A DNA stretch of 64,000 nt, from the NCBI GenBank assembly GCA_033580375.1, contig GCA_033580375.1_4527.1; one strand, written 5' to 3'. Both the position numbers and the translations under genes were made by a program. The notes under the pieces are model-generated. The model was not told the DNA's origin, did not search any database, and saw nothing but the letters and a program-made list of their open reading frames with translations. Positions within the stretch are counted from its first letter, which is position 1; each line of letters begins with the position of its first letter. Source of the stretch: a phage. This document shows positions 5,391 to 43,956 of the stretch, piece by piece.

Positions 5391-5448
5391 TTTTTTGCAT
5401 CTCGCGTTAATTGATGCGATGGGTTTTTTGCAGGTCTTACTTAAATTA

Positions 5449-5835
5449 TTATAGATTCGGTTTATACGATTTAAATGTTTCGAATTCGCCTTTATTCATA
5501 AGAGCTTTGAATTCGTCAGGACGCATAGCTTTGTCGTCGATAATCCAATCATATACTGGTTTATGTGTTAGCAAATTATGGTACTTCAAACCAATGTTTT
5601 CCAAGTTCTGAATCAGACTTGGGAGAATGTCAATTGCTATACGACCAGGACCTACTGACTTCATACCACGAGCAGTGTAAAGCGTTATGGTATGCCCTGC
5701 ATCATACAGGGCATTAATGGCGGTCACCATTTCGACGTCTGGTTTGAAGTTCGCGTAATCACGATTGTTATTCCATTCCGTGATGCAATCATCGACATCA
5801 AAACAAAGATTAAGCATGTTTTCTACACGGCGCAT
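5449..5835 (-). CDS. HAD-superfamily phosphatase, about 128 aa
   Basis: HAD motif I LCFDVDDCIT near N-terminus; ATG at 5833-5835 overlaps upstream stop (TAATG); ORF track start 5850 is an alternative. Confidence 0.7.
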   Translation of the reverse strand: MRRVENMLNLCFDVDDCITEWNNNRDYANFKPDVEMVTAINALYDAGHTITLYTARGMKSVGPGRIAIDILPSLIQNLENIGLKYHNLLTHKPVYDWIIDDKAMRPDEFKALMNKGEFETFKSYKPNL

Positions 5836-39210: not shown

Positions 39211-39425
39211 TAAGGAATTTCCTCATCGGTGGCAAGGTCATATTCGACCAATTGGATAGGCTCATTAATACCATATCCACGTACAGTGATATCAGTTGTC
39301 GGATAGTTTCCAGTAATATCACCCATTCTAAATGCTTCAATGAATGATTGCTCGCCTGAGCAACTAAACCAGGCGGCAAAACATTTTAAAACATCTTCAG
39401 ACCCTTCTATAATCAATTTAGCCAT
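39201..39425 (-). CDS. Hypothetical protein, 74 aa
   Basis: ORF. Confidence 0.5.
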   Translation of the reverse strand: MAKLIIEGSEDVLKCFAAWFSCSGEQSFIEAFRMGDITGNYPTTDITVRGYGINEPIQLVEYDLATDEEIPYVD

Positions 39426-39787
39426 TATAGACTCTCAGTAAAGGTACGAGCGATAACGTCGCGCTGCTGTTCTGGAGTCAGAGAGTTAAAGCGAACTGCA
39501 TAACCGGATACACGAATGGTCAGCTGAGGATATTTTTCCGGATGCTTAACTGCATCTTCCAGAGTTTCACGACGCAGAACGTTAACGTTCAGATGTTGAC
39601 CACCTTCAATTTTAACTTTAGGTTGATGTTCAATTTCAATTTCACGGGCATTCAAACCGTAGAAAATTTCAGGGTCTACAATAGCGTCTTCTTTAAAAGT
39701 CTTAGAGACAATAATCCGGGCTTGAGTACCGTCTTCAAAATAAATAGTGCCTTTATGTGCACCTTCAAGAATTTGATATGCTTTCAT
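39425..39787 (-). CDS. Autonomous glycyl radical cofactor (GrcA/YfiD-like), 120 aa
   Basis: C-terminus [61 protein letters not shown] is the PFL glycyl-radical module (RVSGYAV). Confidence 0.88.
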
Positions 39788-39793
39788 ATAACC

Positions 39794-40102
39794 TCAATTA
39801 GAAAATAAATTTATCCAAGTTTTTTCTTTAATCAAAAATGGGTCGGAATTAAACGCCATTAAACTTTGAGTGATTAATCCCTTAAATGGCCCATCAATAA
39901 ATTCCATTTTGAAATGCGGAATACTAGTCATCAACCGTGCATTAGGAGCAGTACAAAGAACCTGCTGACCTGCGAATGGACCTTTAGTCAAACGATATCG
40001 TTTAGGTTTAAAATGGTAGATCTCGTAATTTTCTACAAGAGCCCTTTTATTGCATACTGGGCTATTATAACAATATTCAAAAACTTCAATAGTGGTCATC
40101 AT
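39794..40102 (-). CDS. Hypothetical protein, about 102 aa
   Basis: Internal ATG chosen to avoid 67-nt overlap; start uncertain. Confidence 0.4.
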   Translation of the reverse strand: MMTTIEVFEYCYNSPVCNKRALVENYEIYHFKPKRYRLTKGPFAGQQVLCTAPNARLMTSIPHFKMEFIDGPFKGLITQSLMAFNSDPFLIKEKTWINLFSN

Positions 40103-40638
40103 TGCATTCCAATCACAAAAAATTGAGGACGAGCAATACCGCCGATGCAATATTTGCTTTTGCAACAGTGTTGGACTGTTTTAATATGTATGTTATAAAT
40201 CTTATCCATATCAGGAGCTTTAATAGGCTCGTCAATTATATACAGAATACGAGAAAGCGTTAATCCACGGAATTTAGAACCTTCGTTGCCAATAAAACTA
40301 CGGACAGAATCAGTAAATAAACGGAATCGAATATCGTCGCTAGAATAACGAGAAAATTCTTTTTTAATGTTGCCAGCAGAAATTTTAGAATAAGCTGAAG
40401 TATTAGAAAGAATAATAACTGTTCCACCATCATACAGCCAATTAACAGCAAAATTAGTTACTGCGGTCGATTTACCTGATTGTCTGCCGCCGTCTAAACG
40501 AAGTGTACAGTACTGCTTGAGTACGTCTTCAAATGGTGGGGCATAACCGTTCTTACAAATTTCTTCTACTCTAGCATCAGAATGGTGTGTAAAAGCATTC
40601 ATCAGGGATAGATAAGGTCCAGTTAAAAATGTTCTCAT
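40099..40638 (-). CDS. P-loop NTPase, about 179 aa (start uncertain; ORF track extends to 40752)
   Basis: Walker A GGRQSGKST; ATG at 40636-40638 preceded by AAGAGAAA; the N-terminal extension from 40752 is basic and lacks an SD. Confidence 0.55.
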   Translation of the reverse strand: MRTFLTGPYLSLMNAFTHHSDARVEEICKNGYAPPFEDVLKQYCTLRLDGGRQSGKSTAVTNFAVNWLYDGGTVIILSNTSAYSKISAGNIKKEFSRYSSDDIRFRLFTDSVRSFIGNEGSKFRGLTLSRILYIIDEPIKAPDMDKIYNIHIKTVQHCCKSKYCIGGIARPQFFVIGMQ

Positions 40639-40818
40639 ATTATTTCTCTTAAGGTTGGGGGCCATTCCATGGCGCATGAATTGTCCATTTCTGTATTTAC
40701 CCATTACCGCACTTGGGCTCGACCTTATTACAGGTTGGCGGGAATCCCTCATAGAATCATGAGGTCCAGGTTGTTCCCATTTTATTTGAATGTAAATATT
40801 TTTGCCACGTGTTTACGA

Positions 40819-40846
40819 ATTATACCAAAAAAAAAACACGTGGCAA
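40819..40846 (-). promoter_or_regulatory. Sigma70-like promoter TTGCCA-16-TGgTATAAT embedded in a 12-bp palindrome (TTGCCACGTGTT / AACACGTGGCAA)
   Basis: Minus strand ttgccacgtgttttttttttggtataattcgtaaacacgtggcaa; read directly. Confidence 0.4.
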
Positions 40847-40915
40847 TTCACAGTATTCGGCGATTAAATGTTGATCAGCAAATTTAGATACTAAAGTCAA
40901 ATTAATATAAGTCAT
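40820..40915 (-). pseudogene. denV 5-prime remnant: 31-codon [31 protein letters not shown]... truncated after codon 28
   Basis: 22 of 28 residues identical to the N-terminus of the intact DenV at 42225-42638; upstream leader also resembles the denV leader; follows ipII as denV does in T4. Confidence 0.5.
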
Positions 40916-40940
40916 TTACCCATCCAAGTAATTATGAATA

Positions 40941-40969
40941 TACTATCACAATTCTAGGAGAAAGTAAAC
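40941..40969 (-). promoter_or_regulatory. Early promoter remnant (GTTTAC + weak -10) upstream of the denV fragment
   Basis: GTTTACtttctcctagaattgtgatagtat, parallel to the promoter at 42666-42695. Confidence 0.35.
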
Positions 40970-40971
40970 TG

Positions 40972-41274
40972 TTATTTACCTTTAATTACTTTAGCTGCTT
41001 CGATAGCCGCTTGCTGAAGGTCATCCATAGACATACCGAATTTAGAAGCAAAGTTATCAATTTTCTTTTCGACAGCATTCAAAGGCTTGGCCTGTTTACC
41101 TTCATTAGCGCCAGGAAGAGCGAGAATACGCTCTTTGTCAATATAAAGGCTTACAAGTTTCTTACGGTCTTTATCGGACAAATCATGAAATGAATGGGCC
41201 TTTTTATTTATAGCGGCTTCTAATTTACCTGCACTCACTCGAGCTTCAGTAATAAATTCTTGATATGTTTTCAT
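40972..41274 (-). CDS. ipII: Internal protein with capsid-targeting sequence (IPII-like), 100 aa
   Basis: N-terminal MKTYQEFITEA (T4 internal-protein CTS, cleaved by the prohead protease); overall resembles T4 IPII as recalled. Confidence 0.7.
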   Translation of the reverse strand: MKTYQEFITEARVSAGKLEAAINKKAHSFHDLSDKDRKKLVSLYIDKERILALPGANEGKQAKPLNAVEKKIDNFASKFGMSMDDLQQAAIEAAKVIKGK

Positions 41275-41315
41275 ATGTTTCCTTTAAATGTAAATAGGCC
41301 TATACTTAGACCTTA

Positions 41316-41894
41316 TTAATTACCACGGGCTGCATTAGCAACGGCGTAAGCGTACTGAACATTAGCGTCTTTAAACGTACCTTTAGATGTATCTATTTCT
41401 GCCTTAAAGCCACCTTTAGCCATAACATCGGCAAATTCTTTACGGAAAGCCATTGCATCAAGACCTTTCCATGATGATTTATGCTTGGCAAATTCAAGAC
41501 CAGCGTAGTTGACAGCTTTAGCTAATTTATTATCAATAACCCATTTACCGGCTTTAGGCACAAACTTCGGGCCTTTTTGTTTAGAGAACAGTTTTAAATT
41601 CCAGCGACGAAGGTCACTGTCGGCTTTAACAAAAGCTGCGTCTAAGTTACTAGCAACAACATCTTCAATATGAGCAAATTTAAGTCCGTCAACTTCAATA
41701 TTTAGATCGTTACGCCAGCGTAGTCCTTCCCAAGCGAAGGCTTTAAAATCAGAAGCCTTTGTAGCTAAGTACCGTTCAATAGGAGCTGTTTTAGGGTCAA
41801 AGCCGTTTCCGCCACGATAAGTCCACTCGTCCTTATTAATGCCTTGAGCTTTTCCTGCAAAGGCCTCGGCGATAAATTCTTTATACGTTTTCAT
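41316..41894 (-). CDS. ipIII: Internal protein with CTS (IPIII-like), 192 aa
   Basis: N-terminal MKTYKEFIAEA; size and position like T4 IPIII. Confidence 0.65.
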   Translation of the reverse strand: MKTYKEFIAEAFAGKAQGINKDEWTYRGGNGFDPKTAPIERYLATKASDFKAFAWEGLRWRNDLNIEVDGLKFAHIEDVVASNLDAAFVKADSDLRRWNLKLFSKQKGPKFVPKAGKWVIDNKLAKAVNYAGLEFAKHKSSWKGLDAMAFRKEFADVMAKGGFKAEIDTSKGTFKDANVQYAYAVANAARGN

Positions 41895-41957
41895 TTTTGT
41901 TTCCTTGTTTGTTTTGATAGAGTAATTATACCATATTAATACTTAAGCGTAAACAAT

Positions 41958-42218
41958 TTAAGCTTTACCGCCAGAAATAATTCCGAAGTTGTTAAAATCG
42001 TATCCAATATCGTCAGCATCTACTTTAGGACTTGCTACAACATAAGCAATTTCACTACGTTTTGCATAGGTGTTGATTTCTTTACCATCGCCACCTAAGA
42101 AAGAATACCCATTACGTTTTAATGAGCCAAAGTCTTCCGCATCACCAATGAAAGCTTTAACTTTAAATTTGGGGTCTTTGGCATCCGCTTCAGTGATAAA
42201 TTCTTGATACATTTTCAT
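41958..42218 (-). CDS. CTS-bearing internal protein, 86 aa
   Basis: N-terminal MKMYQEFITEA. Confidence 0.6.
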   Translation of the reverse strand: MKMYQEFITEADAKDPKFKVKAFIGDAEDFGSLKRNGYSFLGGDGKEINTYAKRSEIAYVVASPKVDADDIGYDFNNFGIISGGKA

Positions 42219-42224
42219 TTTTCC

Positions 42225-42638
42225 TTAGTAAATTGATTTACCATAGTATTTGTACCAAGTGGGACGTTGAGCAATTTTTTCATCTAAGCGTGCTTGACTT
42301 ATCGCAATGGACGCTTCGGACGGGACATAATTATTACGAAATTCTACAGGAATGTCGGAAATATCCTGGACTGTCGTGTCCTTGATTTTGAAACCACGTT
42401 TCAAACATTCAGCTATTAGCTCGATTTGACGTAAACGTAAAAATTCGAGTTTGTCGTAAAAGAATGTTACGTGGCCCGTGCCTAAAATAAATGTTGGAGA
42501 GATTTTAAAATCTTTTACACGTTTACCATTTTGAACATGTTTACGGACTGCACCGAATACACGAGGTAATTCACGATACTCAGCCATAAGATGTTGGTCG
42601 GTCAGTTCAGAAACAAGTGTTAAATTGATACGGGTCAT
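42225..42638 (-). CDS. denV: Endonuclease V (pyrimidine-dimer DNA glycosylase) DenV, 137 aa
   Basis: [35 protein letters not shown]... matches T4 endo V as recalled; ORF track start 42650 adds 4 codons. Confidence 0.92.
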
Positions 42639-42665
42639 AATTTCCTCCAAGTAGTTGATAGATGT

Positions 42666-42695
42666 ATAGTATCAAAACCCTTGGAGGAAGTAAAC
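42666..42695 (-). promoter_or_regulatory. Early promoter (GTTTAC-18-TACTAT) for denV
   Basis: Read directly. Confidence 0.45.
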
Positions 42696-42696
42696 A

Positions 42697-42978
42697 CTAT
42701 TTTTCTGAAGCGCCTGAAATATATTTTTCAAGACGTTGTTTCATCAGCGAGCCGTTCTTAGCGATTTCTTCGGGTTTATCGCACATACGCAACAGTGCTT
42801 CAAGCTTAACGATATCACTGGTGCGCTCAAATTTGCGAGTATCTATCTTACTGGCAAGTTCAGAAATACGTGCTAATAGACTTTCAGCTTCGACCAAAGC
42901 TGCACCTAGCTTAGTTGCAAATGTGTCAGTAGCTTCATTAAGAATAGATTCTGATAAAAATTCATTATATGTTTTCAT
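42697..42978 (-). CDS. CTS-bearing internal protein, about 93 aa
   Basis: [11 protein letters not shown] at second ATG (42976-42978); ATGA-type overlap with lysozyme stop. Confidence 0.6.
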
Positions 42979-43463
42979 ATATACGCTTTCCAAGTTCCTG
43001 TTTTAAATGTTGAGATTACGCGTTTCGCGCGATTAGGTGTCTGACGATACCATTTAGATTGGGCGAGATTTACTGCCGCTTCATCCCAACGTTTCTGTTG
43101 AAGCATACGAAGAGAATTAGTAAAACCAGCAACGCCTGCTACACCCATTTGGAAGACCATATTGACCAATGCACATCGACGAACTGCATCTAAAGAATCA
43201 TATACCGGTTTAAGTTTAGCATTACCCAAGATTCCGCGAACGGCTTTATCAACATCTTCATTAAATAGCTTTTCAGCCTCATCAAGGGTAATTGTACCGT
43301 TGCATTTACGACCGATCATTCTATCAAGTTCAGCTTTAGCTACGGCTAAAGACGGGTTCTTTGTTACCAAATGGCCTATGCCAATAGTCCAAAAGCCTTC
43401 GGTGTCTTTGTATAAAGACAGTCTAAGACCTTCGTCATTACGAAGCATTTCAAATATATTCAT
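42975..43463 (-). CDS. e: Lysozyme (endolysin, gene e), 162 aa
   Basis: [32 protein letters not shown]... matches T4 lysozyme as recalled; ORF track start 43475 adds 4 codons. Confidence 0.95.
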
Positions 43464-43497
43464 AATACCTCCCACGTTTATAGGAGGTATTTATTAC

Positions 43498-43956
43498 TTA
43501 TAGGAGTGTAGTGAGCACCTTATATAATGATTTGCCCATCACATATTCCCATTGAGAAGGTTTAATTAAAGCGAATGCATCAAATTCAGGAATCTGTCGT
43601 CCGTCTGGGAATGTATGATAGGAATTACAAACACTGTTTCTGAATTGCTCGTGCTCTACAGGGATGGTATATAGGAACAGATGAATATTCTTATTGTCTG
43701 AGTAATGATGTTCGCCTAGGTCTTTCAGGAAGGCAGGGTCATATTGTGTAAACCCAGTTTCTTCTTCGCATTCACGAATAGCGGCTTCGATAGGAGATTC
43801 GCCGGGTTCGACACGGCCTTTAGGAATATCCCACCGATGAGCTAAAGAACCTTTAGGACGAGAACCAGTTACACGGCCCATGAATAACTCTTTATCTTCG
43901 GTAAGGAAAATAATACCGGCTGATAGCTCTTTCACTTTATTTTTCTTACTCATCAT
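43498..43956 (-). CDS. nudE: Nudix hydrolase NudE, 152 aa
   Basis: Nudix box GRVEPGESPIEAAIRECEEETGF. Confidence 0.85.
   Translation of the reverse strand: MMSKKNKVKELSAGIIFLTEDKELFMGRVTGSRPKGSLAHRWDIPKGRVEPGESPIEAAIRECEEETGFTQYDPAFLKDLGEHHYSDNKNIHLFLYTIPVEHEQFRNSVCNSYHTFPDGRQIPEFDAFALIKPSQWEYVMGKSLYKVLTTLL

Follow-up and report, generated by a model that had tools for sequence, protein, structure and literature searches.

The window analysed here, a single stretch of 64,000 nucleotides, belongs to a T4-type phage of the genus Mosigvirus (RB69/JS09-like); over positions 39400–43500, its best matches are Mosigviruses, at 96–97% identity. Every gene around the feature of interest lies on the minus strand (Table 1). 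In the direction of transcription, the lysozyme gene e is followed by a small open reading frame (ORF) with an internal-protein leader, an intact resident copy of the UV-repair gene denV, a second small ORF, ipIII and ipII; then come the remains of another denV, a non-coding stretch with a candidate structured RNA, and the vs genes. Pfam has no match for either of the two small ORFs (93 and 86 aa). The internal-protein leader repeat (family D1) is present in four copies in the window and, as one of them sits on the ORF between e and denV (42697–42978), the resident denV itself lies among ip cassettes.

In T4, as in VIPECOOM01 and JE01, the gene order is e–ipIII–ipII–denV–vs.8, so that denV occupies the very place, directly downstream of ipII, where the remnant is found in the window – a correspondence already pointed out in the initial annotation of this DNA. 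An intact denV next to e is present in every Mosigvirus locus examined and in Moonvirus CF1, which argues against the accompanying suggestion that denV had been moved. At simple loci, denV stands directly upstream of the conserved vs.8 leader, as in ESh25 (e–denV–vs.8) and Moonvirus CF1 (e–orf–denV–vs.8); the apparently imported block of the window is placed between the resident denV and this leader.

Table 1. Features around the denV remnant, with the identity of successive segments to the Tequatrovirus VIPECOOM01 (window coordinates).
Feature	Position	Strand	Remarks
e (lysozyme)		minus	first in transcription order
93–98-aa ORF with internal-protein leader	42697–42978	minus	between e and intact denV
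Intact resident denV (RB69-type allele), 137 aa	42225–42638	minus	100% protein identity to DenV of many Mosigvirus-like phages
86-aa ip-like ORF	41958–42218	minus	
ipIII	41316–41894	minus	
ipII	40972–41274	minus	
Apparently imported block, ipIII + ipII + remnant	up to 41906	minus	probable Tequatrovirus-like donor
denV remnant	40820–40971	minus	followed by ~180 nt of non-coding DNA
Predicted denV early promoter and leader (PeSL-type cassette)	40916–40971	minus	GTTTAC 40969–40964; TAGTAT 40945–40940; eroded ribosome-binding site GGATGGG 40925–40919
31-codon ORF	40820–40915	minus	codons 1–28 homologous to DenV N-terminus; stop from frameshift
13-bp perfect inverted repeat, TTGCCACGTGTTT / AAACACGTGGCAA	40802–40846		denV coding sequence and junction
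Sigma-70 promoter-like site TTGCCA-N16-(TGg)TATAAT	40819–40846	minus	created by T10 expansion; this window alone
T10 run (A10 on plus strand)	40827–40836	minus	+5 expansion shifts frame; early TAA at 40822–40820
Deletion junction, single GGCAAA (6-bp microhomology)	40801–40806	minus	292 bp between parental copies absent
Last codons of deleted allele, GGC AAA AAT ATT TAC ATT = GKNIYI	40786–40806	minus	out of frame; stop TAA changed to CAA
Candidate structured RNA, about 85–105 nt	40692–40779	minus	between denV remnant and vs.8
vs.8 (ATG at 40638), vs.7, vs.6 (GrcA-like)		minus	3' of the non-coding stretch
e, nudE segment	42980–43946		71% identity to VIPECOOM01
Resident denV segment	42273–42695		70.8% identity to VIPECOOM01
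ipIII segment	41318–41906		91.2% identity to VIPECOOM01
Remnant + ipII segment	40801–41297		96.2% identity to VIPECOOM01
vs gene segment	38940–40806		80.5% identity to VIPECOOM01
Further downstream segment	37689–38725		76.7% identity to VIPECOOM01

The 31-codon ORF at the start of the remnant had been described as matching the intact DenV at 22/28 N-terminal residues, and we obtain the same count. In tblastn, with this ORF as query, the resident allele is hit at E = 1.6e-8 and the ESh25-type allele at E = 4e-10. At the DNA level, the alignment of 40780–40975 with 42500–42705 scores 72, as against 18.2 ± 2.4 (maximum 28) for 500 shuffles, and the local alignment with the resident denV covers about 37 codons in addition to the leader and the ATG. 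The resemblance of the two leaders is likewise as had been stated, with GTTTAC...GATAsTATA...CTTGGAG in common and 81% identity over 31 nt in repeat family D5. The core of the initial annotation – that the 5' end of a denV has decayed here, together with a promoter and leader of its own, as a scar of recombination or deletion – is therefore borne out. Common descent with denV is further evident from the 91–92% DNA identity to the intact allele that other phages carry at the same locus.

What is left does not amount to a DenV of about 137–138 aa: there are 31 codons, a 292-bp internal deletion and a +5 frameshift. No Pfam family matches the 31-aa peptide at E ≤ 0.01; the intact DenV matches PF03013 at 53.4 bits (cut-off 23). 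Thr2, Glu23 and Arg26 are retained, Arg3 has become Tyr and Arg22 has become Cys – the five being known catalytic and DNA-binding residues of T4 endonuclease V. The 31-codon ORF is without DenV function.

The origin of the remnant can be read from its first 109 nt, which are identical to VIPECOOM01 and JE01 at 100/109 positions (91.7%), to ESh25 at 99/109 (90.8%), to T4 at 87/109 (79.8%) and to the window's own intact denV at only 75/109 (68.8%). As its closest relative is thus the allele that other phages – some Tequatroviruses – carry at exactly the same place, the remnant is not a copy of the resident gene, and the initial description of it as duplicated has to be given up. An intact gene at this position in related phages had been named as an observation that would count against a decayed denV; T4, VIPECOOM01 and JE01 do have one, which reveals the parent of the remnant and refutes nothing. 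Furthermore, alignment with T4, ESh25 and JS09 places the last codons of the ESh25-type allele (GKNIYI), together with its downstream flank, at the end of the remnant. Since this 3' end is kept, the gene has suffered an internal deletion of 292 bp rather than a truncation.

The layout of the remnant – promoter, leader, about 36 codons, the last six codons of denV and then the normal downstream flank – follows from this deletion. In the intact denV of ESh25, VIPECOOM01 and JE01, GGCAAA occurs at gene positions 105–110 and 397–402 (1-based); this direct repeat marks both parental ends of the deletion, and a single copy is left in the window, codons 36–132 being absent. A pattern of this kind is what recombination or slippage at short direct repeats leaves behind. 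The length of 292 bp is not divisible by three, and the deletion is thus enough by itself to abolish the reading frame. In laboratory evolution of T4, deletions and amplifications have been observed between microhomologies of 6–10 bp, including loss of ipIII (Srikant et al. 2022, PMC9391042).

The ORF had been said to be cut off by a palindromic sequence. The palindrome is real: its two 13-nt arms (40802–40814 and 40834–40846) are 100% complementary across a 19-nt loop, and as RNA it would fold at −21.4 kcal/mol (z = −4.1). It is built from denV codons 24–28 and 33–36 together with the deletion junction. What ends the ORF, though, is the +5 expansion of the T run within its loop. The palindrome is largely inherited, as VIPECOOM01 already pairs 12/13 positions. 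We had considered that it was perfected by three compensatory changes through quasi-palindrome template switching, ESh25 pairing 10/13; from the VIPECOOM01 state, a single change is needed, and this idea was dropped. A role as an intrinsic terminator was likewise rejected, since the hairpin is without a U-tract on either strand.

Decay has continued since the deletion. Measured against the nearest intact allele, the window fragment carries nine substitutions in 109 nt, six of them non-synonymous and three synonymous; the amino-acid changes are R3Y, E11K, L12F, R22C and V31I. The ribosome-binding site has been eroded from GGAGAGG in the parent to GGATGGG (GGAG to GGAT). The T run measures T5 in the intact parent as well as in JS09 and TU01, T6 in pEK20 and AV110, and reads GTTTT in ESCO47; T10 is peculiar to this window, where it brings the stop after 31 codons, JS09 reading 42 codons from the same ATG. 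A homopolymer sequencing error may be hidden in this run. Among the carriers, several ancestral bases survive in TU01, and additional changes are seen in ESCO47. Taken over six carriers – a small sample – the 6:3 ratio, the eroded ribosome-binding site and the lineage-specific indels and substitutions are those of relaxed selection.

The identical 292-bp GGCAAA deletion is found in JS09, pEK20, AV110, TU01 and ESCO47, all of them JS09-like Mosigviruses and, in one search, the only records to align across the junction. JS09 is 98.5% identical to the window over 401 nt and has R3Y and other substitutions in common with it. A second deletion, with its junction in a GACTCG repeat, is seen in PHB12, AV113 (both Mosigvirus) and W143 (classified as a Tequatrovirus, with the same gene order): here the same promoter and leader run into ATGACTCG, after which the sequence resumes in the final ~70 nt of the ESh25-type gene. 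Each of the two types has retained something that is missing from the other, 5' sequence in type 1 and 3' sequence in type 2, so that both must go back to a full-length second copy. The junction sequences of the two deletion types are CACGTGGCAAAAATAT and AAATGACTCGATGAAAAA; an exact-pattern search of IMG/VR for the junction gave no match.

The locus also occurs in other states. In phi25-307, a different ip gene stands where the remnant would be, and phages of the phiE142 type have lost ipII and the promoter as well as the remnant. In the window, ipII plus the remnant lie between the two copies of a 10-bp direct repeat, TATTTACATT (minus strand, 41287–41296 and 40789–40798). The phiE142-type junction (locus L103) fits a deletion between these repeats, which would make it a third independent microhomology deletion. 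The spacer between ipIII and ipII holds, in VIPECOOM01 (L005 3971–4078) and W143 (L008 2167–2248), a degenerate copy, ~75% identical, of the 3' half of the structured RNA and the vs.8 leader box (…GGACAATTCATGCG…), and a leader-box copy also lies 5' of the extra ip gene of phi25-307. Judged by their sequence, these copies suggest past cassette insertions in the ip region.

The identity to VIPECOOM01 along the locus is uneven (Table 1), and because the block of ipIII, ipII and the remnant stands at 91–96% between flanks at 71–80%, it appears to be a recent import into a more distant backbone. This contrast points to a horizontally acquired cassette that would have given a Mosigvirus a second denV; the direction of transfer and the donor are read from identity contrasts against a few reference genomes rather than from a phylogeny. 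On the downstream side, the recombination boundary is hidden by the near-invariance of the region upstream of vs.8 in all these phages.

We regard the feature as very probably a pseudogene – the remains of a second denV of a different allele, imported and then gutted by the 292-bp deletion. The Mosigvirus backbone would already have carried its own denV next to e when it acquired, by recombination in the internal-protein hyperplastic region, a Tequatrovirus-type segment ending in ipIII–ipII–denV (ESh25-type). The left crossover probably fell within the repeated promoter/leader cassettes and the right one in the conserved region upstream of vs.8, and the import would have produced a genome with two denV genes. 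What the sequences show is that this copy was inactivated between the 6-bp GGCAAA repeats, by microhomology-mediated illegitimate recombination or slippage, and that the fragment has drifted since, with the T5-to-T10 expansion closing the frame after 31 codons in the window. The double-copy intermediate is inferred, since two intact denV genes in one genome were found neither among 74 IMG/VR loci nor by places-per-record counts in 50,697 phage records. In those records, the places hit by tblastn number 1126 (in 1120 records) for the resident DenV and 1136 (in 1115 records) for the ESh25-type DenV; the known remnants account well for the extra places.

The promoter of the remnant has fared differently from its coding part. 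Over its 44 nt, the promoter segment does not differ at all from the denV leader of VIPECOOM01 and JE01, and the 11-nt Shine–Dalgarno (SD) spacer shows two substitutions and one indel. GTTTAC-N18-TAGTAT, a putative sigma-70-type early promoter, is invariant in relatives; it is absent from our list of scanned sigma-70 sites because it matches only 8/12 consensus positions. Substitutions in the window thus number 0/44 in the promoter, 2/11 in the SD spacer and 9/104 in the coding remnant (plus a 5-nt indel), and across the six type-1 carriers they range over 0–1 in 44 nt, 1–3 in 11 and 3–14 in ~104, respectively. The 0/44 conservation is weakly significant and could reflect a short divergence time. 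Both deletion types (GGCAAA and GACTCG) spare the promoter. The predicted early promoter of the dead gene is probably still transcribing into the structured RNA and the vs.8–vs.1 genes, which would explain why each independent deletion has spared it.

By eye, the inverted repeat of the leader (TCTCCTAG/CTTGGAGA) pairs at 7/8 positions in the parent and at 5/8 in the window, after the mutation of the ribosome-binding site; the corresponding repeat pairs at 8/8 in the resident denV (CCTCCAAG/CTTGGAGG) and at 10/10 in T4. The ip and denV leaders are copies of one cassette type. It has GTTTAC and a −10-like hexamer, together with an inverted repeat that overlies the ribosome-binding site with its 3' arm, and this is why the two denV leaders resemble each other. 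The cassettes recur between small non-essential ORFs (families D1 and D5), and their content differs in JS09, PHB12, phi25-307, W143, T4 and ESh25. PMC2839356 (citing Repoila 1994) and PMC4122927 describe internal-protein loci as being exchanged via such promoter/stem-loop cassettes, which are proposed as the mediators of the shuffling.

A second promoter-like site, TTGCCA-N16-TGgTATAAT, lies across the T10 run. It matches 11/12 positions, has the extended −10 TG and is the best site in 40000–43600; sites with at least 11/12 and TG number one in the whole 64 kb, the one in the remnant, with 0.24 expected by chance. With T5 or T6, the spacer of this promoter-like site would be 11–12 nt.

Several other accounts of the remnant can be weighed against an imported and deleted second denV. 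That the 5' end of the resident denV and its promoter were copied next to ipII when denV moved, and then decayed, would explain both the 22/28 identical residues and the similar leader, and was the original interpretation. We now consider it very improbable, given that the remnant is 69% identical to the resident gene and 91–92% identical to another allele sitting at the same position in other phages, retains the 3' end and flank of that other allele, and has a promoter segment identical over 44 nt to the leader of the latter. Slightly less improbable, yet hardly to be expected, is a functional micro-protein, for instance a DNA-binding or dominant-negative N-terminal fragment of DenV. An ATG-initiated ORF is indeed present in all six carriers and is annotated as a coding sequence (JS09_060, and 'endonuclease' in pEK20, TU01, ESCO47 and RefSeq NC_024124.2); however, the length of this coding sequence varies from 138 nt in JS09 and 129 nt in TU01 and ESCO47 to 99 nt in pEK20 and 31 codons here, its ribosome-binding site is eroded, the 6:3 ratio of non-synonymous to synonymous changes looks neutral, with Arg3 and Arg22 among the residues hit, and Pfam offers no match. 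An assembly or sequencing artefact, which the error-prone T10 homopolymer might bring to mind, is the least credible of all: the same junction occurs in five independently sequenced phages, and only the length of the T run is unique to the window.

A regulatory role is a more serious contender, albeit one we still think unlikely. Here the fragment would be under selection as a cassette whose early promoter drives vs.8 and the downstream vs genes, with T10 adding a second, near-consensus sigma-70 promoter within the dead coding sequence. The sparing of the promoter by all deletion types, its 0/44 substitutions as compared with about 9% in the coding remnant, and the 11/12 match of TTGCCA-N16-TGgTATAAT, unique of its kind in 64 kb, are all in keeping with this. 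Yet phages of the phiE142/Av-05 type (locus L103) are viable isolates without ipII, promoter and remnant, and the new promoter-like site exists in this sequence only and depends on the length of a homopolymer. That the dead fragment has been recruited as regulatory DNA, the old promoter serving the structured RNA and the vs.8 operon and a new sigma-70 promoter arising from the T run, strikes us as distinctly improbable; were it true, a promoter would have been born from a pseudogene by homopolymer slippage. The imported, deleted denV remains our preferred explanation, and in itself the remnant is an ordinary pseudogene scar, at a locus long known as a polymorphic recombination hot spot of T4-like phages.

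The more promising lead is the conserved structured RNA directly downstream, rather than the remnant. Mosigvirus and Tequatrovirus share an invariant 40-nt core, CCAACCTGTAATAAGGTCGAGCCCAAGTGCGGTAATGGGT, which is absent from 185,579 bacterial species genomes. The RNA is laid out as a basal helix P1, a hairpin P2 that varies, a second hairpin that does not (ACCU-GUAAUA-AGGU) and a conserved single strand that ends in a short closing helix. Rfam gave no match and ARAGORN no tRNA call on the remnant, its flank and the RNA element, and the literature on vs.8 or ribozymes in T4-like phages yielded nothing relevant. Its distribution extends to Moonvirus and several other T4-like lineages, to Vequintavirus (rV5-like) and to unrelated phage contigs from metagenomes, and a covariance model built for the element recovers 37 + 13 places. 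P1 comes in many compensating versions, as GGGAA/UUCCC, GGGAG/CUCCC, AAAGG/CCUUU, AAAGC/GCUUU and AAAGA/UCUUU, and further as GGGG/CCCC, GAAUG/CAUUC, GAGUG/CACUC, UGAGG/CCUCA and GGAAC/GUUCC; all five of its pairs vary on both sides and 93% of cells are paired, in an alignment that was itself fitted to the model. An HDV-like nested double pseudoknot, formed between the P1–P2 loop and the 3' tail, was tried and rejected, as per-sequence shuffles gave p = 0.1–0.9 and several variants break it; a nested 3-bp closing helix is in better agreement with the metagenomic variants.

The genomic setting of the RNA element varies. In four rV5-like contigs (L088, L102, L129 and L177) and one unclassified contig (L120), it lies 200–570 nt upstream of a tRNA-Arg(UCU), and in most of these it heads the tRNA cluster; in one contig from the human gut (L160), a tRNA cluster precedes it by about 1.1 kb. 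A T4-like contig (L021, IMG/VR contig 3300045988_118042) has two tandem copies of the RNA motif, at 5414–5519 and 5549–5630, directly downstream of denV. At the denV/ip locus, all deletions and cassette swaps end just upstream of the element.

A longer version of vs.8 (216–217 aa), annotated in T4 and open in the window, has an N-terminal extension that reads through the RNA element (40639–40752 in the window; 2540–2650 in the T4 locus, L002). ESh25 and phi25-307 do not preserve the frame of this extension, and their substitutions in it lack codon periodicity; for this reason, the 179-aa vs.8 start (ATG at 40638) is probably real and the long T4 annotation doubtful, as far as these comparisons go.

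The remnant illustrates clearly, and from nature, what T4-type phages do with the redundancy that modular gene exchange creates. A second repair gene comes in with a cassette, and short-repeat deletions then remove that copy bit by bit, at least two times independently, while the promoter survives. In practical terms, the e-proximal denV is the only functional copy, and the short 'endonuclease V' coding sequences of JS09-like genomes, RefSeq included, are pseudogene fragments.

The closest known counterparts are the JS09-like records themselves: JS09_060, 'endonuclease V N-glysidase' (KF582788.2; RefSeq NC_024124.2), whose annotation cites a DenV entry from phage Pol (CAA84453.1), and its equivalents in pEK20, TU01, ESCO47 and AV110 have the same locus, deletion and shared substitutions. 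They differ from the window in having T5, T6 or GTTTT, and hence longer ORFs, lack the promoter-like spacing, and are annotated as protein-coding rather than as a pseudogene. The intact ESh25/VIPECOOM01/JE01-type denV (T4 endonuclease V, a pyrimidine-dimer DNA glycosylase, PF03013) shares with the remnant its position after ipII, its promoter and leader, the first 109 nt at 91–92% identity, and the last 21 nt with the downstream flank; the remnant is without the 292 bp (codons 36–132), frameshifted and devoid of Arg3 and Arg22.

On a broader scale, the leader resembles the promoter-early stem-loop (PeSL) cassettes and the ~70-bp promoter/inverted-repeat elements of the internal-protein loci. 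In Arbiol 2010 (PMC2839356) and Comeau 2014 (PMC4122927), with Repoila 1994 as cited there, these consist of a sigma-70-type early promoter that an inverted repeat overlaps; they recur 5' of ip genes and denV in the hyperplastic region, with content that varies between close relatives. In contrast to PeSL shuffling, the inactivating deletion here lies between 6-bp intragenic repeats and not between PeSLs, and the PeSL stem of the remnant is degraded from the 7/8 pairs of the parent to 5/8. The T4 deletions of Srikant et al. 2022 (PMC9391042) are alike in being bounded by 6–10 bp repeats, in retaining one copy and in affecting the ip region; those, however, arose in laboratory evolution under genome-size pressure, whereas the deletions of the remnant took place in nature, have become fixed in lineages and do away with a gene that was redundant.
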